From: a virus
Lineage: Duplodnaviria > Caudoviricetes
Length of the DNA: 64,000 nt
IMG/VR virus record: IMGVR_UViG_2706796142_000001
Location: 11,148 to 75,147 of that record
Strand: one strand, 5' to 3'
The position numbers were made by a program, and so were the translations under genes. How positions within the stretch are numbered: the first letter of the stretch is position 1; every line of letters begins with the position of its first letter. The notes below the pieces were generated by a model. The model was not told the DNA's origin. It saw only the letters and a program-made list of their open reading frames with translations, and did no database searches. This document shows, in pieces, positions 28,836 to 42,231 of this stretch.

Positions 28836-28976
28836 ATGAGGATACTGATCTACGGTATCCTCACGGTAGCTGTCGTACTCGCAATCACTTCAGCTATCGT
28901 GTCGATTGCTCCATACGTAGCGATAATCATCGTGATTGCCTTAATCGGCTGGTTCGTAGACAGACCTCCTAAGTAA
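28836..28976 (+). CDS. Small membrane protein (46 aa)
   Basis: Read by hand: MRILIYGILTVAVVLAITSAIVSIAPYVAIIIVIALIGWFVDRPPK. Confidence 0.65.
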   Translation: MRILIYGILTVAVVLAITSAIVSIAPYVAIIIVIALIGWFVDRPPK

Positions 28977-28992
28977 TGGGAGGTCTTTTTTT
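28962..28992 (+). terminator. Rho-independent terminator
   Basis: AGACCTCC/GGAGGTCT stem plus T7. Confidence 0.75.
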
Positions 28993-29073
28993 GGATGGTT
29001 ACTCATAACCTCCTGCTGAAGTTCCTCCTGTTAATAGGCAGGAGGCGTGTTGGCGCACAGTGAGTAATCATCC
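28993..29073 (+). promoter_or_regulatory. Multibranch structured element
   Basis: 13-bp stem GGATGGTTACTCA/TGAGTAATCATCC enclosing a CCTCCTGC/GCAGGAGG stem. Confidence 0.5.
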
Positions 29074-29086
29074 ACAAGGAGATCCT

Positions 29087-29476
29087 ATGCTAATTGATCC
29101 AGAAGAGAATGAAGAAGTTCTTGTCTCAGGAATTATGCTGTTTGACTGTAATGAACGTTTGATGTGTCCTGACTGTGGCACCATTAGCAACAAGCATCTG
29201 TGCTCTGCACCATTCTTTTACCAGTACAAACACAGTCCATTTATAGGCCCACAGTTTGTCTGTCATCACACCTGTCATCGTTGTGGTTACAAAGATGATG
29301 TGGGAAGTGGCTTCACTGACTCAGGTAACTATGAGTCTGAAGAAACAGATGGTATTCAGGAATGGGAAAAAGAAATCGATGAACTGGAAGATGAGCTTGC
29401 TATCTTAAAGCAGAAGTTGGAAAACGGTAAACGCCGTTGGGCAATGTTATGGCATGTTGATCATGATGCAACATAA
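29087..29476 (+). CDS. Putative zinc-ribbon protein with C-terminal coiled coil
   Basis: AAGGAGA RBS; CPDC, CHHTCHRC; acidic coiled coil. Confidence 0.65.
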   Translation: MLIDPEENEEVLVSGIMLFDCNERLMCPDCGTISNKHLCSAPFFYQYKHSPFIGPQFVCHHTCHRCGYKDDVGSGFTDSGNYESEETDGIQEWEKEIDELEDELAILKQKLENGKRRWAMLWHVDHDAT

Positions 29477-29490
29477 CGTAGGAGTTTACA

Positions 29491-29691
29491 GTGGAACATA
29501 TCCCTAAAGAAGAATTGATTGTTGGTAAGCGTTACAAGGGTCGTTGTCGTAACGCTACAGAAGCAGTATGGGATGGTAAACAATTCGAGTATACCCGTAG
29601 TAAGTTTGGGCATACATTTCAGGAGAAGATCTATTGTCCTGAAGATGATGATGTTTACGATGTGTTCTATGCTCAACAAGCTATTGACTAG
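29491..29691 (+). CDS. Hypothetical protein
   Basis: GTG start after AGGAG; YKGRCRNATEAVWDG...F.Y.R.KFG conserved phage pattern. Confidence 0.7.
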   Translation: MEHIPKEELIVGKRYKGRCRNATEAVWDGKQFEYTRSKFGHTFQEKIYCPEDDDVYDVFYAQQAID

Positions 29692-29720
29692 CAACATAAG
29701 TTGGTAGTAGTATCATTTTC

Positions 29721-29796
29721 GACGGGTTAGCTCAGTTGGTAGAGCGATTGACTGTTAATCAATTGGTCATCGGTTCAAATCCGGTACTCGTCGCCA
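29721..29796 (+). tRNA. tRNA-Asn(GTT)
   Basis: Cloverleaf; ATTGA-CTGTTAA-TCAAT anticodon arm; GGTTCAAATCC; encoded CCA. Confidence 0.95.
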
Positions 29797-29802
29797 AATT
29801 AT

Positions 29803-29879
29803 ATTCCCGTAGACAAATTGGTACAGTCACCACACTTTCACTGTGGAGTTTGTGGGTTCAAGTCCCATCGGGAATGCCA
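29803..29879 (+). tRNA. tRNA-Glu(TTC)
   Basis: ATTCCCG/CGGGAAT acceptor; CCACA-CTTTCAC-TGTGG; GGTTCAAGTCC; CCA. Confidence 0.9.
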
Positions 29880-29885
29880 AACAAT

Positions 29886-29961
29886 AGTCCTATAGTTCAG
29901 TCGGTAGAATACCTCCCTGTCACGGAGAAGGTCACGGGTTCGAGTCCCGTTAGGACTGCCA
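29886..29961 (+). tRNA. tRNA-Asp(GTC)
   Basis: AGTCCTA/TAGGACT acceptor; CTGTCAC loop; GGTTCGAGTCC; CCA. Confidence 0.93.
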
Positions 29962-29964
29962 AAT

Positions 29965-30040
29965 TGCTTCATAGCTCAGTGGGTAGAGCAACCGCCCGAT
30001 AAGCGGTAGGTCACTGGTTCAAGTCCAGTTGAAGCAACCA
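29965..30040 (+). tRNA. tRNA-Ile(GAT) with C33
   Basis: TGCTTCA/TGAAGCA acceptor; ACCGC-CCGATAA-GCGGT; GGTTCAAGTCC; CCA. Confidence 0.9.
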
Positions 30041-30042
30041 GT

Positions 30043-30123
30043 TTAGAGGTATTCAAGGTCGTTGGTCATAGTGGTTTTCGGTATAGCCCCGAACAACGTA
30101 AAATGATCCCTTGCCTCTAATCA
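30043..30123 (+). ncRNA. Candidate structured ncRNA A
   Basis: TTAGAGG/CCTCTAA, CAAGG/CCTTG, GTTG/CAAC, TTCGG/CCGAA nested stems; non-coding; inside tRNA array. Confidence 0.45.
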
Positions 30124-30124
30124 A

Positions 30125-30192
30125 TTCCGATTCGCTACCGGAAGACCTGTCAACCAGACACTAACTGGTCAATTGGGTGAGAAGCCCATTCA
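30125..30192 (+). ncRNA. Candidate structured ncRNA B
   Basis: TTCCG/CGGAA hairpin, ACCAG/CTGGT hairpin, TGGG-TGAGAAG-CCCA T-loop-like hairpin. Confidence 0.4.
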
Positions 30193-30198
30193 AATTAT

Positions 30199-30293
30199 GG
30201 AAGCTACAAACACAAGTAGGTCAGGTATTCCTTGGGGCAGTGTCTGACGTGAAAGTGGAATTGTGAGTGGTGAGAACCCACGAGCTTCCTGCA
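30199..30293 (+). ncRNA. Candidate tRNA-like ncRNA C
   Basis: 7-bp acceptor-like stem GGAAGCT/AGCTTCC plus TGCA tail; GTGG-TGAGAAC-CCAC T-arm; GTCAG/CTGAC arm without a 7-nt anticodon loop. Confidence 0.55.
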
Positions 30294-30298
30294 AATTA

Positions 30299-30380
30299 GG
30301 GGGATTAGTCAAGCGGTCGAAGACGGCAGACTGTAAATCTGTTATCCCACACGGTAGTTCGAATCTATCATCCCCCACCA
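30299..30380 (+). tRNA. tRNA-Tyr(GTA)
   Basis: GGGGGAT/ATCCCCC acceptor; GCAGA-CTGTAAA-TCTGT; variable arm; CCA. Confidence 0.93.
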
Positions 30381-30384
30381 ATTA

Positions 30385-30461
30385 CGGCATTTAGCTCAGT
30401 TTGGCAGAGCATCGGCTTTGGGAGTCGAGGGTCGAAGGTTCAAATCCTTCAGTGCCGACCA
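30385..30461 (+). tRNA. tRNA-Pro(TGG)
   Basis: CGGCATT/AGTGCCG acceptor; TCGGC-TTTGGGA-GTCGA; GGTTCAAATCC; CCA. Confidence 0.94.
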
Positions 30462-30466
30462 AATTT

Positions 30467-30558
30467 GGAAGATTGGCTGAGTGGCTAAAGGCGTCCGGTT
30501 GCTAACCGGAAGGCGGTGTAACAGCTTCCCACTGGTTCGAATCCAGTATCTTCCTCCA
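30467..30558 (+). tRNA. tRNA-Ser(GCT)
   Basis: GGAAGAT/ATCTTCC acceptor; TCCGG-TTGCTAA-CCGGA; long variable arm; CCA. Confidence 0.93.
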
Positions 30559-30563
30559 TCTTC

Positions 30564-30640
30564 AGGTCGTTAGCTCAGTTGGTTAGAGCACCGGACTTTT
30601 AATCCGGATGTCATTGGTTCGAGGCCAATACGACCTACCA
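30564..30640 (+). tRNA. tRNA-Lys(TTT)
   Basis: AGGTCGT/ACGACCT acceptor; CCGGA-CTTTTAA-TCCGG; CCA. Confidence 0.94.
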
Positions 30641-30642
30641 AA

Positions 30643-30759
30643 TTACAGTCCAGCTTTCTTCTAAATGAAACTCTATTGTGAGTGACAAATAGATCCCCTT
30701 AGGGGTAAGGGAAGTTGATAACAATATGCAGTACCCAACTACTGCTGGACTGTAACCCA
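30643..30759 (+). ncRNA. Candidate CCA-ended ncRNA D
   Basis: Perfect 12-bp terminal stem TTACAGTCCAGC/GCTGGACTGTAA followed by C-CCA; internal hairpins. Confidence 0.6.
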
Positions 30760-30866
30760 TTTCGGCTCGCTAATCCGAAAACTTGATGTGCTGCTTAACT
30801 GGGCTATCCCCCCATCCAAAAGGTTAACTGCACATCGCCTGCCTCGATTGGTTCCCGTAAGGAACT
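30760..30866 (+). ncRNA. Candidate structured ncRNA E
   Basis: TTTCGG/CCGAAA hairpin, GATGTGC/GCACATC with TTAAC/GTTAA, GTTCC/GGAAC hairpin. Confidence 0.4.
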
Positions 30867-30869
30867 ACT

Positions 30870-30905
30870 AAACCCCTGCATACACAACTATGCAGGGGTT
30901 TTTTT
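30870..30905 (+). terminator. Rho-independent terminator ending the tRNA array
   Basis: AACCCCTGCATA-CACAAC-TATGCAGGGGTT plus T tract. Confidence 0.9.
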
Positions 30906-30930
30906 ATATCTGAACCAAGAGGAAATACCA

Positions 30931-31428
30931 ATGAAGTTGAACCAACTGACTGATGAAATCCGTCACATGGTACTGGGTGCTGCACAGCATGTGCTGGCTA
31001 CTCAAGACGACCATGCATCGATGGATCGCTTCCTGACTAAAACCCATAAGCTGCTGGAGCATGAATTTCCTGAACCAGTAGAAGATGATGAGGCAGAGAT
31101 CACCATGATTGCCCGTCTGTGTCACCAAGCGAATAAAGCCTACTGTGAATCGCTGGGGGACTTCTCTCAGCCAGACTGGGAAGATGCACCTTCTGAGATC
31201 CGTGCGTCTGCCATGTTCGGAGTTGAGTTCCATCTGGAAGCTGATCGTACTCCTGCTGAGAGCCATGAAAACTGGATGAAGCAGAAGATACTGGATGGCT
31301 GGATGTATGGCCCGGTTAAGAACTTTGAAACCAAAGAACACCCTCTGCTGGTTGATTACGACCAGTTACCACAGGAACATAAATCGAAAGATTATATCTT
31401 CCGTGGTATCGTTAACGCCTTCAAATAA
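30931..31428 (+). CDS. RyR-domain protein
   Basis: IARLCHQANKAY, ESHENWMKQKILDGWMYGPVK...KEHPLLVDYDQLP...KD. Confidence 0.8.
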   Translation: MKLNQLTDEIRHMVLGAAQHVLATQDDHASMDRFLTKTHKLLEHEFPEPVEDDEAEITMIARLCHQANKAYCESLGDFSQPDWEDAPSEIRASAMFGVEFHLEADRTPAESHENWMKQKILDGWMYGPVKNFETKEHPLLVDYDQLPQEHKSKDYIFRGIVNAFK

Positions 31429-31437
31429 GGGGCAGTT

Positions 31438-31629
31438 ATGGCAAAGGTTGTAGCAGATGAAATGACCTACGAGAATACCAGTTGGGAAAGTTGGCTGGTC
31501 ACTTTAGTAGGTCTGGCAGAGGCACTGGGAGCTGATGTTACTGGTTCTGAGGATGCGTGGTTTAGTGACTACAAATCCGGTCTTACTCCGGTAGAATCGA
31601 TCCGAATGTTTTCACCAAAGTCACAATAA
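31438..31629 (+). CDS. Hypothetical protein
   Basis: 63-aa ORF with AAGGGG RBS, ends at the convergent terminator. Confidence 0.65.
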   Translation: MAKVVADEMTYENTSWESWLVTLVGLAEALGADVTGSEDAWFSDYKSGLTPVESIRMFSPKSQ

Positions 31630-31659: not shown

Positions 31660-34600
31660 TTAGTGAGCCAAGATGTTAACCCAAGGGTTTAGCATCGGTG
31701 ACTGGAGTGCTTGCCCAATACCAAGGGAATAACTCATTCGACCATCGCCCAATACAGTGAACATGTTATCTGTGATCGGTGAACCAATGGTGCCGAACAG
31801 TGTAGGGTGAGGAGTCATTGCACCTACCAGAGCATGTACCGGGTTGTTACGCAGCATGGACATAGCCACTTTTGCGGAACGGATCTTAAAGTTATAGAAC
31901 CAGAGAAGACCCGTCTTTTCCATGTATCCACGGAAGCGACCCGGCAGTCTGTCATAGTTCACATACTCTTCTGTGATACGAGACAGAGCATACTCAGTTG
32001 TCTTCTGCTGACGCTTAGTCAGGTGGTCAAACAGGATTGCTTTGGAGATGAAGTCACCATAGTCCATGGCTTTCTCCAGTCCTTTAAACAGAGCAGTATC
32101 CTGAGTGATCAACGCATAACGACCCATGTCACGAACTTCTTTCGGCAGCTTATCAACCTTCTCTTCAAGGTATGAGTAGAGCTTTCCTGAAGTCAGTGCA
32201 GTCTCTTCACCTGCCAGAGAAGCATCGTTAATTGCTGAGAATTCACCCGCCTGAATCAGAGGCCAGATACTCATTCTTGAATGGCTATCCAAGATGGTCT
32301 GGATCTCAGCTTTCAGTTTACGTGTCTTCACCACATCCCCATTGGCTGCACGAAGTTCTGCTTCGGCTTCGATCTGACGTACACGAGACTTAGTGTACTT
32401 GTCGATCTCTGCCAGTTTACGTGGCAGGCCACGAGCAATATCAGCAATCGGAACACCACGGCTAATCAACTGGTACACGTTACCCAAGGCATTCGATACC
32501 GGTACGATAATCGACTTAACGATGATCATGGTACGGGCATCATGAACCAAGTTCTGAGTAAAGCGTTCAGCATTGGTAGCGTACTGGTACGCCTTGTTGC
32601 CAAACATAGCCAGTGCCACATTCTTGGCAGTGTCTAAGGCTGATTTATTCCAGCGACTATTACCAGTCCAAGCATCACCAATTGAAGCATCGCGGTAGCC
32701 GAAAGCATCAGCCAACATATCACGGCGTACATAGAACTCTTTTCCGAACGTGTCTTCGATGTGCTCCTGTACTTCAGGGGTGAACAACGAGACTGCATCC
32801 GAGAGGACTTTATCCTTAGCCAGTTCCCTTGGATCCATGATGTTGATATACGCTGCTTTGTTGCTCGGATCATTAACCATGTCCTTTTCGTACATGCGAT
32901 GCAGTGAGTCCACCAGTGCTGTGTTTACTGCACCAGCCCGGATCTCTTCGACCTGACGACCACGCCATACACCGATCATCTTCGCAAGGTTAGTTTCCTT
33001 GTTCAGACGAGCTGTCTGCTGTGGAGCCAGGGAACGCTCGTAAGCGATTACAGTACCCTTGTTGTTATAGACGGGTAGCAAATGCTCTCCAGTCTCACCA
33101 CGGGCCATACGCTTCGTAATATTACGGATCTCAGTTGGATCAGTAATACGTCCGGCAACCATAGTGTGAACAGTGTTACCACTGTTAACGTCCACACCAT
33201 TCACGGTCTGACGAATGTTCTGCATGATACCTTGGTTGAATACAGCACGACCGGATACCGGAGCATAGTAGTAACCGTGTTTACCACGATTACCCTCTGC
33301 ACTGGATCCCTTGTAGTCACCCACACGGACATAGCTCATTTTGCTCAGACGATCGTACTCAGCATCGCTGGCAACAATCAGGGATACTCCCTGCTGGTTC
33401 TCAGAAGGAATGTAACCCTTGTACTGGTTGAACTTAGCAGCAGAAGATTTATCAGCTTTACGCTTTTCTTCTACCTGCTGACCTTTCAGATAGGCCATGG
33501 CAAAGTCAATACCTTCGGCTTCGTTATCGACCAGAGTAGACAGGTCATAACGCTCTTTCAGGTTCAACATGTCCAGTGCATACAGACTGGTCAGTTGGTC
33601 AACCATGGCAACAAACTGCTTGTCCTTCAGCTTGAATCCCTTCGCAGGTTTCTCACCCAGCAGACGGGAGATAGCCTCAGCATTACGCAGCAGGTTCTGA
33701 CCGTGTTCACCATTCATCATGTAGCCAGCCAGTTGCTGCATCTTGGCTTGGTACAGATCGAAGTTATCTGGATCAGCATTCTTCAACTGAGTTTCAAGGT
33801 GCTTAACGGCACGTTTGAATTCAGACGGCTTGCTTATCAAAGTGTGGATCTCATCATTGGACAGAGACTGACCCAATGAAGCCAGATCAGCTTTACCCAG
33901 TGACTTATGCAGTAATGTCCATTCTGCTTCGGTCAGGTCACGGCTGAACTTGTCTGCAATCACAGTCGGCAAGTGCTGACGGAATTGCTGACGATCTTGC
34001 TGAACCAGAGCATGAACAGCTTTAATCATGTCGTAAACACCAGCATTGGATTCGGTACGACCAACCATATCGTTGACCAAATCGAACCAAGGCTGTAGGC
34101 CACGACTACGGTTCAGAGCAGTCATCACACCATCAGCAACGTGAGCACCATTCTTCTCAGTAGCAATGGCACCGATCAGTTTGGCAGAAGAAGCCAACGC
34201 CTTAACATACTTGTTGTTGGACTTGTTCTTAACCTTCTCTGCTTTATCGATCAGACCAGAAGACAGGTCATCCATTGCCTGAACAATGTAATCGTTGGCC
34301 CGGTCAATGAAGCCACCAGCTTTAGAAGCGTACTGGTCAAAGAAGGTTTCACGGTTCTGAGCGATATCCAGAATGTGACCAGTCAGGCTATCAACAGCAG
34401 CCTGTACTGAATCACCACGCTCACCAGCCATGGTATTGGACAGTTTGTTAATCAGACGAGTACCAGTGTTTTCCAGCACAGCATCCAGAGTTTTGTCACC
34501 ATTCAGATCCAGTTTAGGAAGTGGCAGTTTCGCCAGTACCTCACGCAGACCATCGTTGACAGTAGCCAGAGCCAAGAAAGAAGGCAGCAGCGAAGAACGA

Positions 34601-37600
34601 CCTGCTGTATCAGTCTCGGTCAGATAGTTACCCATCAGTACGTTGTATTTCTCCTGAGCGTAGTAACGCTCAACATCCTGATCAGCAGCATCTGGATTCA
34701 TCAGATCTTCCACCTTCAGTGTTTTGGTCACATGAGCATAAAGCTCCTGAGCACGAGACATTGAAGCTGGGTCGATTTTAGCCTGAGTCATCAAGGCACC
34801 AACCATTGCAGAGTAGGCAGTACCTTCTTGCATAGACATTGGGAACCCATGAGCATTAACAGATCCCTGTAAACGAACCACTGACATAAGAGCATTGTTC
34901 AGCTCGTTGTCACGTTTGGCACGAGTCAGTACATCTGGTGCGTCATTCAGATACTGAGCAACAGTCTTATCGAAGCCCTCAATCACTTCCTGAAGACGAG
35001 GATTATTCCCGTACTGTGAGTTGTGCATCAGTACTGTGTCTTGGTGAGTACTCAGTGTGGTCGGCATAGACCGCACGAATACAGCCGTGTTGAATGACAC
35101 GTTAGAGAACAGATCTTCACCCGGTTGTTCCGGGAAACGCTTACGTCCAAATGCCAGTTGTTTGATCCAACGAACAGCATCTTTAGCAATGCGAACCAAG
35201 AAGGAAGCTGGGGTGTTTCGGGTCACTGTTTCCAGATTCTGGTTAGCCAGAGTCCATGCCATGAACTCATTCAGAGCATAGGTTTTGGCCTTAGCAGTGT
35301 CCTGCATGATGTACTCAGAGATTGAGTTATAAGCATCGTTGTAAGCACGTTGCTGATCACGAGTCATATCTGATTTGTCCATCTGCATGAACTGGTTCAT
35401 TGACTCTTCCAGTCGCTCTACTGCTTCATCGATCACACCAGACAATGGCCCCATGTCCTGACCACTGTAGTGGGCAAACAGATTATCCATTGTTGCTGAG
35501 TGGATCATCTCATGCAGCACAACTTCCGGTGAGGCGTTAACCAGATAAATCACACCATCCAACGGAGAGTAGAAACCGTTTACAGATGGATCATTGAAGT
35601 ACTCGGACTTCAGCTCAGAGCCGTTATCTTTGTTCCACTGGATCAACTGTTCTGGTGTACCTGTCACCACTTTAAAGTTCTGTGGGCCAACGTTACGCAT
35701 CAGGAAATTGAACATTTTCTTCTGCGTGTCAGTGCCGGTACGGAACAGATTAGTCAGGGCATAACGAGTCATCAGCTTGGCACCAGAAGGTGTTTTAGCT
35801 GCAACCGTTTCAACCTGCTTGGCCTGCTCAACAGTAGCTGGCTTGAAGGTACGTTTTACCGGAGCACGTTTGTTCTCCAGACGAACTGCCAGATTCTTAT
35901 TCAGGGCATCCAGTTTTTCTGCATTGGTAGTTGGTACAGCAGTCTTGTCTCCCACAACATACGGGGAACCAACAGCAGCCATCTGATCAACAGAGATATT
36001 ATGGTTGTCCAGCACAGAGTGTCGGGCATCGATAATGTCAGCAGAGTAATCCAGTGTTGCTTGTAACTCTTGTAGCATATTCATAATGCCAGCATCAGAG
36101 ATAGAAGCAGCATCTTCTTCAGAGATAAACTCTGGGGAGATGGAACGAACAAAGGCTACCCGGCTTGCTTCCGGCATATTGTCTGCAACGTGTTTCATCA
36201 TCTGGTCGAAGCTGTCTTTCACAACACGGATCGGGTTATTCATCCAGCTATCGAACACACCTTGGTTCACTGTGGTGCTGTCCTGAGACAAGCGATCCAG
36301 TGCCATATTCATACCATCAAATACGTACAGGTTGTTCTTCGGTGCTTTAGGAGAGGTGGCAGTGTTCTGCACCATCTGCCCATCACCCATACCAATGTTG
36401 ATGAATGGGATACCGGATACACCGGAATCACTCGGAGCATCTACCGTTGCTGGCATACGCAGTTTGTCACTGAAGGTACGGCTAAAGTCTGTGTTGGCAA
36501 CCTCAGAAGACTGGGAGCCTGCAACATAGAAGTTCTGGGTTCCGGTCTGAATGAACGGAGCCAGTTTAACCAGTCCTTTCTGGATCTCGTTCAGGTCGTT
36601 TTGGGACAGGAACTCTGTACCAACATTACCTTTCTCGTCCAGACGTGCCTGCACTGCTTTCATGTAAGCATCCTGCAACACGATACTCTGTGCCTGAGTT
36701 GCCATGCGAACCAGTGTGGCTGATTGCAGTACTGAATCACCAACGACAGTACGGATCGCATTGTTCATCGGGGCGACGAACAGCGTTTCCATGTTGTCAC
36801 GGATGTTCTTCAGTTCATCCCGACCCAATGTGAATTCCTGAATGGACTTCATAGGGTTAGGCTGAGTAACACGCTCATTCAGAGTCATTGGCTTATTGCC
36901 TTTCTGAACAGCAACACGTTCAGTCAGGTTAGACAATGCACGCTGGAAGAATGCCATCTTAGCCGGATCACCGGGGAACATAGCATCAGCCAGAGTCAGG
37001 CTTGGATCCTGATCCATTGCCTCAGCAGCCAGTGACATACGCTGGTAGATTGAGTCAGCAATAGCCTTAGTCATTTTGCCAGCGATACCAGCAGAGCCGG
37101 AACCATACAGGGTAATGGTCAGTGGGTTCTTAGCGATACCACGTTTCATGTCTGTGATGTTGCCAGACTTGTCCGTGTTGATATCGTCGTTGAACTCACC
37201 CATCAGCCATTGCAGAGATGAAGACTGTTTCAGCAGATCACCTGTCAGCGACTTACGCAGACTTGAGATGTTCTGAGACAATACATCGGTAGTGGCTTGA
37301 TACATATCACGGCTAACCTGATCACCACGGGAACGCAGTTCATTGGCAGTCGTTGTTGCATCACCACCAATTACCACACCACCACGACCGAGGTTATCCA
37401 TCTCGTTCTGGGTGAATGGGCCAGTGGTCATCAGTGCAATTGCGTTAATAACACCGTTGGTCATGCCGTCAGCTTCAACGTACATAGGCGTTTTGAATGC
37501 TGCACGTTCTTCAGGAGTAGCCTGATCCAGACGAGCATATTCCAGCAGAGCCTGCATCTTCATGGCTGAGAGTTTACGGCCACCATTGTCAGACAGCAGG

Positions 37601-40600
37601 GTAGCAGTAATGTCATCAGACAAAGTGCCGGACTCATGGAAGTCACGCATAGCCTGAACAGAGTCAGCGAACTGGTTATTAAACAGTTCCTGTACCTGAG
37701 CCACAGAAGAATCTCTGTCCTGATTGTGGATCTTGATATCCATCATCTGAGCAGCAGCAACCATGAAAGCATCACGGTTCTCTTTCTGGTTCATATCCAG
37801 TGTTGACCACGTTGGCAGGATAGCTTCACGCATCAGTTTGCTGGACTGAGGATTCTGTTTACCCAGCATCTGCAAACGGTTAACACGGGTCATGGCATAG
37901 GCATAACGATGTTCAACCTGATCCAGAGGAATCCCGTTCTGATTACTGTGCAGAGTCGCAGCACCAACAATGTTCTGGAGCTGGTCATAGGCAGCAGTGA
38001 TCGACAGGTTACGTCCTTTCAGAGTCTCCAGATAATTCTTGTTCAGCAGTTCTTCACGGCTGGACAAGTCACCCTCACCGTACACATCAACCACGTTATC
38101 CCGGCCTAACTGAGTCAGGAAATTGACCATAGGCATGTGGAAATAAAACGGTTGATCCTGAGCATTCTTAACAGTGGCTTTCTGCTGGGCAGTCAGTTGC
38201 ACTGAAGCATTGTTCAGTTGGGTTCCGGTTACAGGCAGAGTGTTACCACCGAAGTGGAATGTCTCTTCTGGGTCAACCATCACAGAACGTTCAATAGCGT
38301 CAGGTGCAGCATGTACCGGGCTGTCAGAAGCCAGCAGCTCAACAGGGAACTTACTCTGAGCAGTTGGATTACCGGCAACGATACGGTTGATCTCTTTTAC
38401 ACCGGCACCAGAAGACTTCTCGCCATCATCCAGTAAACGACCCATGCCAATATCGTAACGGCCTTTCTGGATCTGGAAGATACCCACTGAAGGATCAGTC
38501 ATTGCTTCAATGATTTCACCAGCCATAGCCAGTGGGATCCCTTTGGTGTAACCCAGAGGTGCATCATTGTTTTCAGAGACTCCCCAGTACTGCTGGATCT
38601 TCTGAGCCAGTGAAGAGACAGCTTCCACTTGAGACAGGCCACTGTTCAACAGGTCAACCATATCGTCAGTTACGGCAGACTCATCGATACCAAAGAACTT
38701 CGCTGCACCTTCAACATCGGTAGCAGTGGTGTAGTTATTGGCAATCAGAGTCCACTGCATAGCAGCGAGAATGGCATTCTGTAACAGAGCAGGATTATAA
38801 CTGATCTTACCGTCAGCACTGGCTTCAGTCAGGTTAAGCAATTTACCAGCCAGATAAGTATTGGCCTTGGTCTTACCTGAGAGGAATGCCTGTCCTGCGG
38901 TCAGGTCAGACTTACCTTTTTTGTTAGCCCAAGTGTCTAACTGGTTCTGCATCTGTGCAGCAATAGCACGAGCACCATTCAGGAAGGTTCCATACGCCTG
39001 AGTAGTAGCACGAGGCATATCGTAGCCAGCCACGGCATTGCCCTTGATCATATTACTGACCAAAGCAAATCCGTTGGATACCTTAGAGATACGAGACTTC
39101 TCGGTCTTAGGCAGTTTGAATGCTTCGTGGAACTTGTTCCCGGCTACAGGCTGAACCAAAGAAGGATACACCTCAGCAACAGTGGTAGGCTCAGTAACAG
39201 CTTCTTTCACTGGTTCAGGTTTAGTTACTTCTTCTTTAGGAGCAGTCTTAGTCGTTTCTGTGTTTTCTGCTTTATCCTGTTCAGTAACAACAGCTTCTTC
39301 ACGGTTAGTCATTTCGTCAGACATACGTGAGAAATTGTCATTAGTTACAGCGTCATAGCCATCAGTACGCAGACGGTCATGAGCATCATTCATTTGCTCA
39401 TTCAGTTCTGCATCAGACATAGCAGAAATCTGATCATCAGATAATGGGGTAGGCGAGGTGTTCACCACTTCACTATCATTAGATTGATTAACTGATTTAT
39501 CTACCTTACGGGTTCCATCACGGAATGCTTTAGCAATCTCGCTAGGCGTACCCTGAACCAGTAAAGGATTCAGAGGAGTGTTCTCCAAATGCCTTACACC
39601 AAGCTCTGGGAAAGCCGTACCCAAACTGTTCGCCATGTTGGTAACAAACTGGGCTTCAAGCCCTACTTGTTTCGCAAGCGCAACCGAACGAGCATTCTGG
39701 GGATTGACGAAGAGTCCCTTGCTGCTGGTAGCCCAAGTCCGGTCGGGCATGAGGGCATCATAGTTGACCGTACTATTCGTATTCGGATCCGCCGTGACGA
39801 GATGGGTGTTCAACGCACCAACCTTGTTCTGCATGTGCTGGGCGAACTGCTGGAGATCAACAAGCAGATTCCGGGCCAGTTCGAGATTACCCGCCATGTA
39901 CGCAGACCGAATACCCTTCGCATGTTGCAACGCAGATTTTGTGCCTTCTGCACTTCGTGTCTCGTCCGTTTTAATCTGGGCTGACACTACGTCTTGCGGC
40001 TGCATCCCCTGAGCTGCTGCTTCTGCATCATATGCTTTAGCAGAATTCAGGAGAGCTGCTGCGGTTTGTAAGGCAGCACGCTGGGTATCGTTGAGTTGGA
40101 TCTGACCTGTCTGAGCGTGCTTGAGGATCTGATCCACTGCATCCACATTTGCTTTCTCCGGTGCGTATTCCGCAATCGCAATGTGGTTCTGTGCATTCTG
40201 CTGACCCTCTGGAGTAGCAATGTTCTCATCAGTTACAGGCTGAACCAGTCCAGAAGATTCAGCAGTGTTCACCAGATTATCCATGACCTTACCTGCCCGG
40301 CGTACAGACGGGGTATTAGTCACGTTGGCAATCACATCACCCACACCATTGGCAAACTGTACTGCTGGATGATCAGCAGGCAGATCGTCAAGTGCTTCTG
40401 GTGAAGTCTGAATAAACGCAGCCAGTTGACCCAAGTAAGCATTCAGCACCTGCATAACATTCATGCGATCCTGCTGGCTGTTCTTTGGATCAGTCATGAA
40501 GGTAGCCATCTGCTGCAAGGCTTGCACACGGTTAGTGGCACCCTGAACAGCACGACCAGCAGCTTCTGGCATCTGTGGAGCTTCTTCCTCAGCATTGAAG

Positions 40601-42231
40601 TTGAAGGTATCAGCCAGAGCGTTGATGTAATCGTTTGTGGCAGCTTTCTGATCATCAGGTAGTGCTGACTCAGATACAGCAGAAGTCGCTTCCTGTGCAG
40701 CCTGTGGAGCGTTCTGTTGTGCTTCAGCAGCAGCTTGTGCAATCACACTGTCAGCAACAGGTGAAGCCTGTTCATTGGCCTGAGTCACTGCATCCTGACG
40801 GCGTTGGATCAGAGTCTTAGAGGCTTTGGCAGCATTGATAGCAGCCATTGAACCAGTAGAAAGAACAGAGCCTGTTTTACCTGCTGCTTGTAAAGCACCA
40901 GCAGCACCCATTCCATACAGGCCACCAAGACCAGCTTGCTCACCAACACCTTTGGTCAGATCCAGATTAGGATCTACAGTGTTCTGCAATCCAATGTTCT
41001 GGGCAGTCTGCCCGGTAGCTGATTGCAGAGTTTCTTCCACACCTTCTTTCAGTGTGTTCTGACCCAGTTGACGAAGGGAAGATACTGCAAACGGGTTGGC
41101 TTCAAAGCCAGATGCAATACGTCCAGTCAGTGCAGCAGCCGGGCCTTGAATCAGAGCAGCCTGAAGACCAGCACTATGAGCCAGTGAAGTACGGGCATCT
41201 TCCTGTGACATACCCTGACCACCTTGAGAAACAGGTTTAGTCATCTGTACGAAATCAGGAGAGTTTTTGGTTAAGTCAGCAAAAGACATACCAGAAACTT
41301 CAGCAGAGTTCTGCTGGTAAGCCCCACCACCTTCCATCAAACCGATACCGGCAGCGGTAGAACGTTCAGCAGTAGCCAGACGTGACAACGCCGGGATCGC
41401 TTCTGAACCAGCTTTGATTGCTTTACCCAGTGGGCCAGCAGCCAGAATAGAACCGACACCCTGAGAGATACCATCAGCAACGATCTGCCCTGAGTCAGTA
41501 GCATTACTTACTGCATCAATAGCATCACGACCGATACGTTTCAGGCCAGCCATAAAGTTGCCATCGTTGCCAATGTCTTTCTGGTACTGAGCTGTGTTGT
41601 CACGGTAGTCGAGTGTGTTCTCTGTCTGGTTCAGACGGCGACGAGCATTAAGGGAATCAGACTCTGAACCAGTAATGGCATCATTGAGACTTTGGATCTG
41701 AGAAGAAGCCCACTGGCCTGCTTTGTCATCAACCATTCCCAGACCGAATGCAGCAATACCACCCAGACCATTTGCCAGACCTTGACCTACACCCAGTGCA
41801 GAATCACCCAGCATCTCACCAGTGGATCGAGGATTTACTGCATCGTTACGAGTCTGAGTTTCTGCCAGTGCTTGTCCGGCAATAATTTTATTCGCATCGG
41901 TAGTGCCATATTTGAGCATCAGGCTCAATGGATCCAGATTACGAATATCGGCTTCTAAACCAGTGGCACTTGCAGCCCCGGCACCTGTTTGTTTACCAAC
42001 CTGTGCAGAGTAATAGTCAGGCTGTCCAAAGGCAGCAACTTTACCCACAGCAGCATTAGCAACATCGTCCTGCTTCTGGCTGGAGACTCCTGCTACAGCA
42101 TTCATAGTCTGTGCAGGTACACCCGTAGAAGAGTCAGGAGCGATATTAGGAATGAAACTTTCTGGCGATGCTGGCTGGGATACGTTCCCATTTCCAGCAT
42201 ATTGATTTAACAGGTCGATAGGACTTGCCAT
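31660..42231 (-). CDS. Virion-encapsidated RNA polymerase (N4 gp50, vRNAP)
   Basis: 3523 aa; motif A YVEADGMTNG, motif B KRGIAKNPLTITLYG, motif C LYVFDG; hallmark of Schitoviridae. Confidence 0.97.
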   Translation of the reverse strand: MASPIDLLNQYAGNGNVSQPASPESFIPNIAPDSSTGVPAQTMNAVAGVSSQKQDDVANAAVGKVAAFGQPDYYSAQVGKQTGAGAASATGLEADIRNLDPLSLMLKYGTTDANKIIAGQALAETQTRNDAVNPRSTGEMLGDSALGVGQGLANGLGGIAAFGLGMVDDKAGQWASSQIQSLNDAITGSESDSLNARRRLNQTENTLDYRDNTAQYQKDIGNDGNFMAGLKRIGRDAIDAVSNATDSGQIVADGISQGVGSILAAGPLGKAIKAGSEAIPALSRLATAERSTAAGIGLMEGGGAYQQNSAEVSGMSFADLTKNSPDFVQMTKPVSQGGQGMSQEDARTSLAHSAGLQAALIQGPAAALTGRIASGFEANPFAVSSLRQLGQNTLKEGVEETLQSATGQTAQNIGLQNTVDPNLDLTKGVGEQAGLGGLYGMGAAGALQAAGKTGSVLSTGSMAAINAAKASKTLIQRRQDAVTQANEQASPVADSVIAQAAAEAQQNAPQAAQEATSAVSESALPDDQKAATNDYINALADTFNFNAEEEAPQMPEAAGRAVQGATNRVQALQQMATFMTDPKNSQQDRMNVMQVLNAYLGQLAAFIQTSPEALDDLPADHPAVQFANGVGDVIANVTNTPSVRRAGKVMDNLVNTAESSGLVQPVTDENIATPEGQQNAQNHIAIAEYAPEKANVDAVDQILKHAQTGQIQLNDTQRAALQTAAALLNSAKAYDAEAAAQGMQPQDVVSAQIKTDETRSAEGTKSALQHAKGIRSAYMAGNLELARNLLVDLQQFAQHMQNKVGALNTHLVTADPNTNSTVNYDALMPDRTWATSSKGLFVNPQNARSVALAKQVGLEAQFVTNMANSLGTAFPELGVRHLENTPLNPLLVQGTPSEIAKAFRDGTRKVDKSVNQSNDSEVVNTSPTPLSDDQISAMSDAELNEQMNDAHDRLRTDGYDAVTNDNFSRMSDEMTNREEAVVTEQDKAENTETTKTAPKEEVTKPEPVKEAVTEPTTVAEVYPSLVQPVAGNKFHEAFKLPKTEKSRISKVSNGFALVSNMIKGNAVAGYDMPRATTQAYGTFLNGARAIAAQMQNQLDTWANKKGKSDLTAGQAFLSGKTKANTYLAGKLLNLTEASADGKISYNPALLQNAILAAMQWTLIANNYTTATDVEGAAKFFGIDESAVTDDMVDLLNSGLSQVEAVSSLAQKIQQYWGVSENNDAPLGYTKGIPLAMAGEIIEAMTDPSVGIFQIQKGRYDIGMGRLLDDGEKSSGAGVKEINRIVAGNPTAQSKFPVELLASDSPVHAAPDAIERSVMVDPEETFHFGGNTLPVTGTQLNNASVQLTAQQKATVKNAQDQPFYFHMPMVNFLTQLGRDNVVDVYGEGDLSSREELLNKNYLETLKGRNLSITAAYDQLQNIVGAATLHSNQNGIPLDQVEHRYAYAMTRVNRLQMLGKQNPQSSKLMREAILPTWSTLDMNQKENRDAFMVAAAQMMDIKIHNQDRDSSVAQVQELFNNQFADSVQAMRDFHESGTLSDDITATLLSDNGGRKLSAMKMQALLEYARLDQATPEERAAFKTPMYVEADGMTNGVINAIALMTTGPFTQNEMDNLGRGGVVIGGDATTTANELRSRGDQVSRDMYQATTDVLSQNISSLRKSLTGDLLKQSSSLQWLMGEFNDDINTDKSGNITDMKRGIAKNPLTITLYGSGSAGIAGKMTKAIADSIYQRMSLAAEAMDQDPSLTLADAMFPGDPAKMAFFQRALSNLTERVAVQKGNKPMTLNERVTQPNPMKSIQEFTLGRDELKNIRDNMETLFVAPMNNAIRTVVGDSVLQSATLVRMATQAQSIVLQDAYMKAVQARLDEKGNVGTEFLSQNDLNEIQKGLVKLAPFIQTGTQNFYVAGSQSSEVANTDFSRTFSDKLRMPATVDAPSDSGVSGIPFINIGMGDGQMVQNTATSPKAPKNNLYVFDGMNMALDRLSQDSTTVNQGVFDSWMNNPIRVVKDSFDQMMKHVADNMPEASRVAFVRSISPEFISEEDAASISDAGIMNMLQELQATLDYSADIIDARHSVLDNHNISVDQMAAVGSPYVVGDKTAVPTTNAEKLDALNKNLAVRLENKRAPVKRTFKPATVEQAKQVETVAAKTPSGAKLMTRYALTNLFRTGTDTQKKMFNFLMRNVGPQNFKVVTGTPEQLIQWNKDNGSELKSEYFNDPSVNGFYSPLDGVIYLVNASPEVVLHEMIHSATMDNLFAHYSGQDMGPLSGVIDEAVERLEESMNQFMQMDKSDMTRDQQRAYNDAYNSISEYIMQDTAKAKTYALNEFMAWTLANQNLETVTRNTPASFLVRIAKDAVRWIKQLAFGRKRFPEQPGEDLFSNVSFNTAVFVRSMPTTLSTHQDTVLMHNSQYGNNPRLQEVIEGFDKTVAQYLNDAPDVLTRAKRDNELNNALMSVVRLQGSVNAHGFPMSMQEGTAYSAMVGALMTQAKIDPASMSRAQELYAHVTKTLKVEDLMNPDAADQDVERYYAQEKYNVLMGNYLTETDTAGRSSLLPSFLALATVNDGLREVLAKLPLPKLDLNGDKTLDAVLENTGTRLINKLSNTMAGERGDSVQAAVDSLTGHILDIAQNRETFFDQYASKAGGFIDRANDYIVQAMDDLSSGLIDKAEKVKNKSNNKYVKALASSAKLIGAIATEKNGAHVADGVMTALNRSRGLQPWFDLVNDMVGRTESNAGVYDMIKAVHALVQQDRQQFRQHLPTVIADKFSRDLTEAEWTLLHKSLGKADLASLGQSLSNDEIHTLISKPSEFKRAVKHLETQLKNADPDNFDLYQAKMQQLAGYMMNGEHGQNLLRNAEAISRLLGEKPAKGFKLKDKQFVAMVDQLTSLYALDMLNLKERYDLSTLVDNEAEGIDFAMAYLKGQQVEEKRKADKSSAAKFNQYKGYIPSENQQGVSLIVASDAEYDRLSKMSYVRVGDYKGSSAEGNRGKHGYYYAPVSGRAVFNQGIMQNIRQTVNGVDVNSGNTVHTMVAGRITDPTEIRNITKRMARGETGEHLLPVYNNKGTVIAYERSLAPQQTARLNKETNLAKMIGVWRGRQVEEIRAGAVNTALVDSLHRMYEKDMVNDPSNKAAYINIMDPRELAKDKVLSDAVSLFTPEVQEHIEDTFGKEFYVRRDMLADAFGYRDASIGDAWTGNSRWNKSALDTAKNVALAMFGNKAYQYATNAERFTQNLVHDARTMIIVKSIIVPVSNALGNVYQLISRGVPIADIARGLPRKLAEIDKYTKSRVRQIEAEAELRAANGDVVKTRKLKAEIQTILDSHSRMSIWPLIQAGEFSAINDASLAGEETALTSGKLYSYLEEKVDKLPKEVRDMGRYALITQDTALFKGLEKAMDYGDFISKAILFDHLTKRQQKTTEYALSRITEEYVNYDRLPGRFRGYMEKTGLLWFYNFKIRSAKVAMSMLRNNPVHALVGAMTPHPTLFGTIGSPITDNMFTVLGDGRMSYSLGIGQALQSPMLNPWVNILAH

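Follow-up and report, generated by a model that had tools for sequence, protein, structure and literature searches.

The stretch of DNA analysed here (the window, 64,000 nt or 64 kb, from a full viral record of 75,147 bp) belongs to an N4-like Erwinia phage, whose tRNA region is 93-98% identical over its aligned part to those of the phages Rexella, Ea9-2 and Tellus (Schitoviridae, Erskinevirinae, Johnsonvirus). The window carries on its minus strand an ORF of 3523 aa (31660-42231) which, judging from its size and from how its counterpart is annotated in Kuerle and Moo19, is the gene of the virion RNA polymerase. It also carries eight canonical tRNA genes recognised by ARAGORN (29721-30640), all eight with an encoded CCA and separated by spacers, mostly of 3-6 nt, that are rich in A/U. 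These eight genes, together with a 117-nt unit that follows the last of them and is the subject of this study, lie between one promoter-like site and one terminator (Table 1). The tRNA-Pro gene at 30385-30461 is missing from Rexella, Ea9-2 and Tellus, where the site is empty, is marked by a gap of about 100 nt or is taken up by a tRNA-like gene plus another module, so the operon is a mosaic of cassettes even inside one genus. Phages of other families, a 111-kb coliphage and a T4-like Kosakonia phage, also share other non-tRNA modules with the operon.

Table 1. Features of the tRNA operon and of the 117-nt unit, in window coordinates
Feature	Position	Strand	Basis
Sigma-70-like promoter match	29684-29713	+	Upstream of first tRNA; consensus match only
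tRNA-Lys(UUU), last canonical tRNA of the operon	30564-30640	+	ARAGORN; Rfam tRNA model, 70.9 bits; encoded CCA
Spacer AA (2 nt), tRNA-Lys CCA to unit	30641-30642	+	Sequence
Unit: closing helix, 5' arm	30643-30654	+	Exact complement of 3' arm; 12/12 pairs kept in phiEaP8
Unit: variable arm with hairpin 30672-79 / 30685-93	30655-30694	+	Folding and alignment; alternative pairing with 30660-63
Unit: hairpin 2, 6-bp stem 30696-30701 / 30706-30711, invariant GGGG loop	30696-30711	+	In phiEaP8, two compensatory pairs and one mismatch (C-A)
Unit: conserved tract, mostly unpaired	30711-30743	+	Comparison with phiEaP8
Unit: closing helix, 3' arm	30744-30755	+	Exact complement of 5' arm
Unit: unpaired C (30756) and CCA (30757-30759)	30756-30759	+	tRNA positions 73-76 by analogy
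Structured non-coding operon tail, outside the unit	30760-30869	+	Folding
Tail hairpin with TCGCTA-type loop	30760-30780	+	Folding
Long tail hairpin	about 30784-30837	+	Folding
Small tail hairpin	30850-30866	+	Folding
Strong intrinsic terminator closing the operon	30870-30908	+	Inverted repeat; terminator predicted at 30870-30901

A sequence-only reading of the window had described the unit as closed by a perfect 12-bp stem followed by C-CCA and as starting 2 nt past the CCA of tRNA-Lys, and both statements hold: the two arms are exactly complementary, and tRNA-Lys ends at 30640 where the unit begins at 30643. In the whole window this is the sole perfect inverted repeat of at least 12 bp with a long spacer, the others being palindromes or a terminator, and by estimate only about 0.02 occurrences per window are expected by chance of a perfect 12-bp helix whose arms are 40-200 nt apart and which is followed by NCCA. 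A looser pattern (at least 10 bp, G-U allowed, NCCA) is common, with 15 occurrences in the window against 0-10 in shuffled sequences; the helix and NCCA pattern by itself is therefore weak, and the case rests on position, folding and conservation. The unit folds by itself into a two-armed junction that is closed by the 12-bp terminal helix (-38.5 kcal/mol, z = -4.6, none of 200 shuffles being as stable), and the closing helix is retained when a context of 347 nt, comprising tRNA-Lys and 150 nt downstream, is folded as a whole (z = -5.3).

Conservation and distribution of the unit

Within Johnsonvirus, the Rexella copy of the unit is identical to that of the window, while 25-80 nt further downstream the two phages differ by many substitutions and by a 23-nt insert. 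The Ea9-2 and Tellus copies differ only by a replaced loop patch (30679-30686) and by the change of the terminal CCCA to CCTA. A diverged homologue was found in the Yonginvirus phiEaP8 (L014 2960-3059), with a near-twin in Fifi051; it is 63% identical to the window unit with five indels, scores 92 bits (E 3e-19) against our covariance model R1 and has a fold z of -4.0.

Conservation of the stem with covariation in relatives was one of the checks that the sequence-only reading had set, and it came out in favour of the unit. Between the window and phiEaP8 all twelve pairs of the closing helix are kept, three of them by compensatory changes and one by a change from A-U to G-U, the other eight being invariant; this count was read directly from both sequences, the automatic alignment hiding one compensatory pair behind a gap. 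Hairpin 2, the GGGG-loop hairpin already noticed in the earlier reading, gains support from two further compensatory pairs, with one mismatch. Altogether, six of 22 pairs are changed on both sides in phiEaP8, a count reached by none of 500 shuffles, and 95% of the cells of the alignment are paired, as against 27-40% when the partner is slid. We consider the covariation support as good but not overwhelming, as it comes from two diverged lineages only. As regards the other hairpins that had been proposed for the interior, the one at 30672-79 / 30685-93 stands in part, its inner pairs being found in the consensus but competing with a pairing to 30660-63, and the competing hairpin at 30728-33 / 30740-45 lacks conservation, its 5' half being part of a 12-nt insert (30727-38) that only Johnsonvirus has and phiEaP8 does not. 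Three blocks of the mostly unpaired tract, 30711-15, 30718-26 and 30739-43, are common to the window and phiEaP8.

The tail shows a similar mixture of constancy and change. The tRNA-like arrangement of terminal helix, discriminator base and CCA is present in the window, in Rexella and in phiEaP8, in the form of 12 bp, C and CCA in the first two and of 12 bp, A and CCA in the third, where a 13th pair (U-A) is possible using the discriminator base. Ea9-2 and Tellus have C-CUA instead of C-CCA, that is, CUA in two of the six genomes, and an encoded CCA is consequently not strictly required. The first pair of the unit is U-A; as the tRNA-Ile of the operon likewise starts with U1-A72, a U at position 1 is not odd in this operon.

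The strand of the unit can be read from the same comparison, since the G-U pair of phiEaP8 would correspond to mismatched C and A in a transcript of the opposite strand, which points to an RNA of the plus strand. A 41-aa ORF on the minus strand (30635-30760) has an extent that nearly coincides with that of the unit, but its ATG is ATA in Ea9-2 and Tellus, its frame is broken in phiEaP8 by stops and by indels that are not multiples of three, and the G-U pairing suits only a plus-strand RNA, an objection that applies equally to a hairpin or cruciform acting at the level of DNA; we find it scarcely credible that the unit is either of these. A decaying and functionless relic, whether it came from a tRNA gene or from a mobile cassette of the tRNA cluster, would agree with the gain and loss of cassettes in the mosaic tRNA clusters of these phages and with the mutated CCA of Ea9-2 and Tellus. 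Such a relic is nevertheless very improbable, given that compensatory changes preserve two helices, that the Rexella unit is identical where the adjoining sequence has diverged, and that no similarity to a tRNA is left over in the unit. Judged from these comparisons, the unit is a real, conserved and folded non-coding RNA unit with a tRNA-like end, and is not a tRNA.

The flanks of the phiEaP8 homologue are different from those of the window, with another closing-helix module upstream instead of tRNA-Lys and with unrelated sequence and a different gene downstream. As the homology starts and stops at the ends of the helix, the unit behaves as a cassette, like the surrounding tRNA genes. This bears on the idea of a passive processing or insulation element, in which the helix would be a signal for folding or for cutting by RNase III, RNase E or RNase P that parts tRNA-Lys from the structured RNA downstream and the excised piece would have no function. 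Other closing-helix units do lie between tRNAs and other RNAs in these operons, and the unit directly abuts another structured RNA; but the whole unit is kept in phiEaP8 although both neighbours differ, parts of the interior without a role in end formation (hairpin 2 and the unpaired tract) are conserved or covary, and a helix of 12 bp is short for RNase III. A purely passive element thus seems unlikely to us, although it is the alternative to which we give the most weight.

The distribution of the unit is limited. A distant blastn search of 50,697 phage records gave matches only in Johnsonvirus or in phiEaP8 and Fifi051, and three degenerate patterns run on IMG/VR, JGI metagenomes and GTDB genomes returned only phiEaP8 and chance matches, the latter being rejected by the model and located away from tRNAs. 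Model R1 found no copy in the whole genomes of five other schitoviruses (Kuerle, Moo19, Pastis, TacPo2 and MIF8) or in other loci, and the loci reached via the downstream RyR-domain protein contained no comparable tRNA clusters. The unit is missing from Kuerle, a close Yonginvirus, and from Fifi067. By these searches the family appears narrow (Johnsonvirus and part of Yonginvirus) and dispensable, and since it is narrow and absent from close relatives, any function of the unit would be accessory.

Comparison with known RNAs

A search of Rfam over positions 29000-31500, at E up to 10, placed no family on the unit. The absence of a cloverleaf, already remarked upon in the sequence-only reading, was confirmed: ARAGORN makes no call, the Rfam tRNA model (RF00005) has no match in the unit even at this threshold, and there is no conserved 7-nt loop of the anticodon type. 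A tmRNA was rejected as well, ARAGORN finding none in the window and Rfam giving no match.

Two RNAs of phage T4 were considered as candidates by homology. For species 2 RNA (rnaD), a covariance model of T-even sequences (R2, built from rnaD of T4, VR20, RB14, HP3 and JS98) has no match on the unit, its best matches anywhere being unrelated ones with E of about 0.7-5. For species 1 RNA (rnaC), which has a T-arm-like hairpin, the matches of blastn-short are T-arms of true tRNAs only. Blastn with rnaC and rnaD returned nothing in the unit; outside it, the matches with rnaD were limited to one 10-mer of the neighbouring hairpin and, near 30849-64, to two 8-mers lying side by side, all with non-significant E values. 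The bacterial Y RNA YrlA (RF02553) gave no match overlapping the unit, and its matches of 20-25 bits (gathering score 69) fall on true tRNAs. The resemblance of hairpin 2 to Erwinia type I-E CRISPR repeats, compared by eye, was too weak for a CRISPR-repeat mimic, and a search for a base-pairing target of the conserved tract found no other site within the window.

In its layout the unit is closest to the T4 tRNA cluster, where 1 nt separates tRNA-Arg from rnaD (species 2, 119 nt) and 6 nt separate the latter from rnaC (species 1, 139 nt); both rnaD and rnaC are stable RNAs of unknown role (PMC3014915, PMC9697503). In both cases structured non-coding RNA of 117-139 nt stands after the last tRNA, with spacers of 1-6 nt in T4 and of 2 nt here; both are presumably freed by tRNA-processing enzymes, and both are accessory. 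There are also differences: no homology is detectable between rnaC or rnaD and the unit, rnaD carries at its 5' end a hairpin that stands apart from the long helix, it is not closed by a terminal minihelix of 12 bp with NCCA, and its TCGCTA-type hairpin loop has counterparts only in neighbours of the unit (30125-43 and 30760-80) and not within it. The unit is non-coding, constrained and placed inside a tRNA transcription unit, which are features of stable RNAs of phage tRNA operons, and by analogy it belongs with the unexplained small stable RNAs of the T4 tRNA cluster, these RNAs being a functional class and not a homology family. What is new is apparently this RNA family, the kind being already known from T4 rnaC and rnaD.

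Other non-tRNAs recruit tRNA enzymes by means of a tRNA-type end, such as the tRNA-like domain of tmRNA, the 3' tRNA-like structures of plant viruses and mascRNA; these have retained defined identity elements (G3-U70 in the case of tmRNA) together with a T-arm or T-loop, whereas the unit has neither a T-loop nor a conserved identity set. The YrlA class, which has been linked to tRNA mimicry and to phages (PMC4201824), resembles the unit in the pairing of its 5' and 3' ends in a long stem and differs from it by its tRNA-like domain, and no Ro60 gene is present in the region examined. In the N4-like Pseudomonas phage LUZ7, the orf69-orf70 intergenic region yields abundant small RNAs late in infection, which are partly processed, and is a small-RNA hotspot in the published Nanopore transcriptome (PMC9163698). 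This region (L054 12645-13042) occupies the same neighbourhood as the unit, following SSB and gp46-like genes and preceding that of the virion RNA polymerase, but it contains no tRNA and no match to the model. The small RNAs from this syntenic region of LUZ7 show that the locus type is an RNA-producing site, with no sequence relation to the unit.

Possible maturation and role

We consider it reasonably probable that the unit is a gene for an accessory stable non-coding RNA of the tRNA operon, which would be cut from the tRNA precursor by tRNA-processing enzymes, the helix-plus-CCA end serving maturation and stability and the conserved interior being the working surface. Cutting in A/U-rich spacers is the typical behaviour of RNase E on E. 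coli tRNA operons, and the polycistronic precursor would be opened in such spacers here. RNase P would then cut the 5' side of the helix and 3' exonucleases would trim the other end to an N-CCA overhang, which the host CCA-adding enzyme could repair; for the CUA of Ea9-2 and Tellus, this enzyme might carry out the repair after trimming. The tRNA-like end would in this manner provide excision and stability. The part acting in trans would be the conserved junction, made up of the GGGG-loop hairpin 2 and the unpaired tract, and its binding partner would be some protein or RNA of the infected cell, with no charging by an amino acid.

That tRNA-processing enzymes would carry out the excision is suggested by the T4-like layout and by the acceptance of hairpin models by RNase P. 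The E. coli enzyme cleaves hairpin models of the acceptor and T stem as well as pre-4.5S RNA and pairs with the 3' RCCA, and a helix of about the length of acceptor plus T stem with a 3' N-CCA suffices for cleavage (PMC11143913). A minihelix-type substrate of this kind needs a 5' leader, some 12 bp of helix and an overhanging RCCA at its 3' end (PMC11143913). The unit has these features and shares with the model substrates a continuous helix of about this length and a single-stranded 3' N-CCA. It differs from them in that its helix closes a multi-branch junction and not a T-loop and in that its first pair is U-A; the U as first base and the missing T-loop are less favourable for RNase P and point against this model of maturation.

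The sequence-only reading had proposed a minihelix-type tRNA mimic that might be aminoacylated or act as a decoy. One part of this proposal stands, the unit being a discrete and constrained one that copies the acceptor end, with 12 bp, N and CCA in a homologue of 63% identity. The other part, aminoacylation, has nothing in its favour. Aminoacyl-tRNA synthetases read positions 73, 2:71 and 3:70 on minihelices, and across the two lineages these are C versus A, U-A versus C-G and A-U versus G-U, respectively; the occurrence of CUA in two of the six genomes and the dispensability of the unit also argue against charging. G3-U70 with A73 is the alanine identity set, and it is present in the phiEaP8 copy only, the window having A3-U70; we therefore treated it as a chance occurrence.

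An action on the tRNA-handling machinery can be conceived more broadly, as a natural CCA-ended minihelix RNA that works against or through this machinery, either as a decoy or sponge for a host defence enzyme (a toxin, for example) recognising acceptor ends, or as a mimic that is charged or bound by EF-Tu or by the CCA-adding enzyme, the hairpin and the unpaired tract adding specificity. The exact 12-bp helix with N-CCA in two lineages despite turnover of the sequence speaks for such a mimic, as do the alanine-type end of phiEaP8 and the nature of the neighbouring tRNAs (Lys, Tyr, Asn and Asp), which are of the classes hit by known anticodon nucleases and thought to be replaced by phage tRNAs (PMC10264068, PMC11464382). 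However, the identity positions vary between the lineages, with 73 either C or A and no G-U at 3:70 in the window, Ea9-2 and Tellus end in CUA, close relatives do without the unit, and the unit lacks an anticodon arm, unlike the countermeasures known from phages, which are real tRNAs altered in the anticodon loop. We hold a mimic of this kind to be doubtful, with a probability somewhat below that of the passive element and well below that of the accessory stable RNA.

The small stable RNAs of the T4 tRNA cluster have been known for about fifty years and no function has been assigned to them. The unit is a compact and well-delimited example, with its 117 nt, its clean end of 12 bp and NCCA and its short conserved unpaired tract. 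Because it is compact and belongs to a 75-kb phage of a culturable plant pathogen with relatives that have or lack it, deletion, swapping and mapping of the ends should be straightforward. An interaction with tRNA enzymes or defence nucleases would make the unit a phage counter-measure of a new type; otherwise, it would be a further member of an under-annotated class, the members of which are missed by annotators or mis-called as small ORFs.

Other structured modules of these clusters

N4-like phages, T4-like phages and the 111-116-kb coliphages (EP_H11, IME392) of enterobacteria exchange RNA cassettes of this sort, and several other modules were observed in the course of the analysis. In the window, an 81-nt module (30043-30123) with a closing helix of 7-9 bp and an end in TCA directly follows tRNA-Ile; this site is occupied in phiEaP8 (L014 about 2584-2650) and in Kuerle (L015 about 2297-2381) by units with unrelated interiors, the closing helices of which differ by paired changes. 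Both this module and the 117-nt unit are followed by a hairpin in which the stem varies and the loop is of the TCGCTA type (30125-30143 and 30760-30780). Such hairpins are also found at L014 2651-2672, L015 2384-2405 and L055 about 1501-1520, in Erwinia phage MIF8 in a non-coding stretch free of tRNAs before a terminator, and at the start of T4 species 2 RNA (L021 2165-2145, minus strand), where an exact 10-mer is common; the rnaD covariance model reached significance on none of them. The long tail hairpin (30784-30837) has in Rexella an outer helix with paired substitutions and an apex with the 23-nt insert.

Another module of the window (30199-30293) has a 7-bp acceptor-like helix, a stacked hairpin with a 7-nt loop and a tail reading T-GCA. 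Over its first 46 nt it is 96% identical to a part of the tRNA cluster of the T4-like Kosakonia phage Kc304 (L039 1501-1546), in which this stretch is joined to a different, tRNA-like gene. This unannotated gene of about 95 nt is found in Kc304 (L039 about 1546-1640) and in Tellus (L003 about 1188-1283) and has a 7-bp acceptor helix, a canonical T-arm, an encoded A-CCA and an aberrant middle, with no call by ARAGORN. A short hairpin with a 7-nt UGAGAAG or UGAGAGG loop (30172-30189, L014 about 2750-2770 and L017 about 1212-1232) is shared by N4-like phages and coliphage EP_H11, a tRNA gene beginning a few bases downstream of it.

A 98-nt module with a closing helix of 12-13 bp is present in phiEaP8 (L014 2858-2956), EP_H11 (L017 1501-1597) and IME392 (L018 1501-1597); it is 83-86% identical between the N4-like Erwinia phage and the 111-116-kb coliphages, its helix shows one compensatory and one wobble change, and its tails are TACA or TCTA and not CCA. 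In Escherichia phage EP_H11, about 2.4 kb (L017 150-2600) is almost free of ORFs and has three called tRNAs only, together with several remodelled tRNA-like units (acceptor helix, T-arm, CCA and large insertions) and other structured modules. Finally, a unit of about 75 nt with an 11-bp closing helix and T-CCA lies at 28996-29070, just past a terminator (28962-28986), and is conserved in Ea9-2 and Tellus (L002 and L003, 43-117), with a change from G-U to A-U in the helix between those copies.
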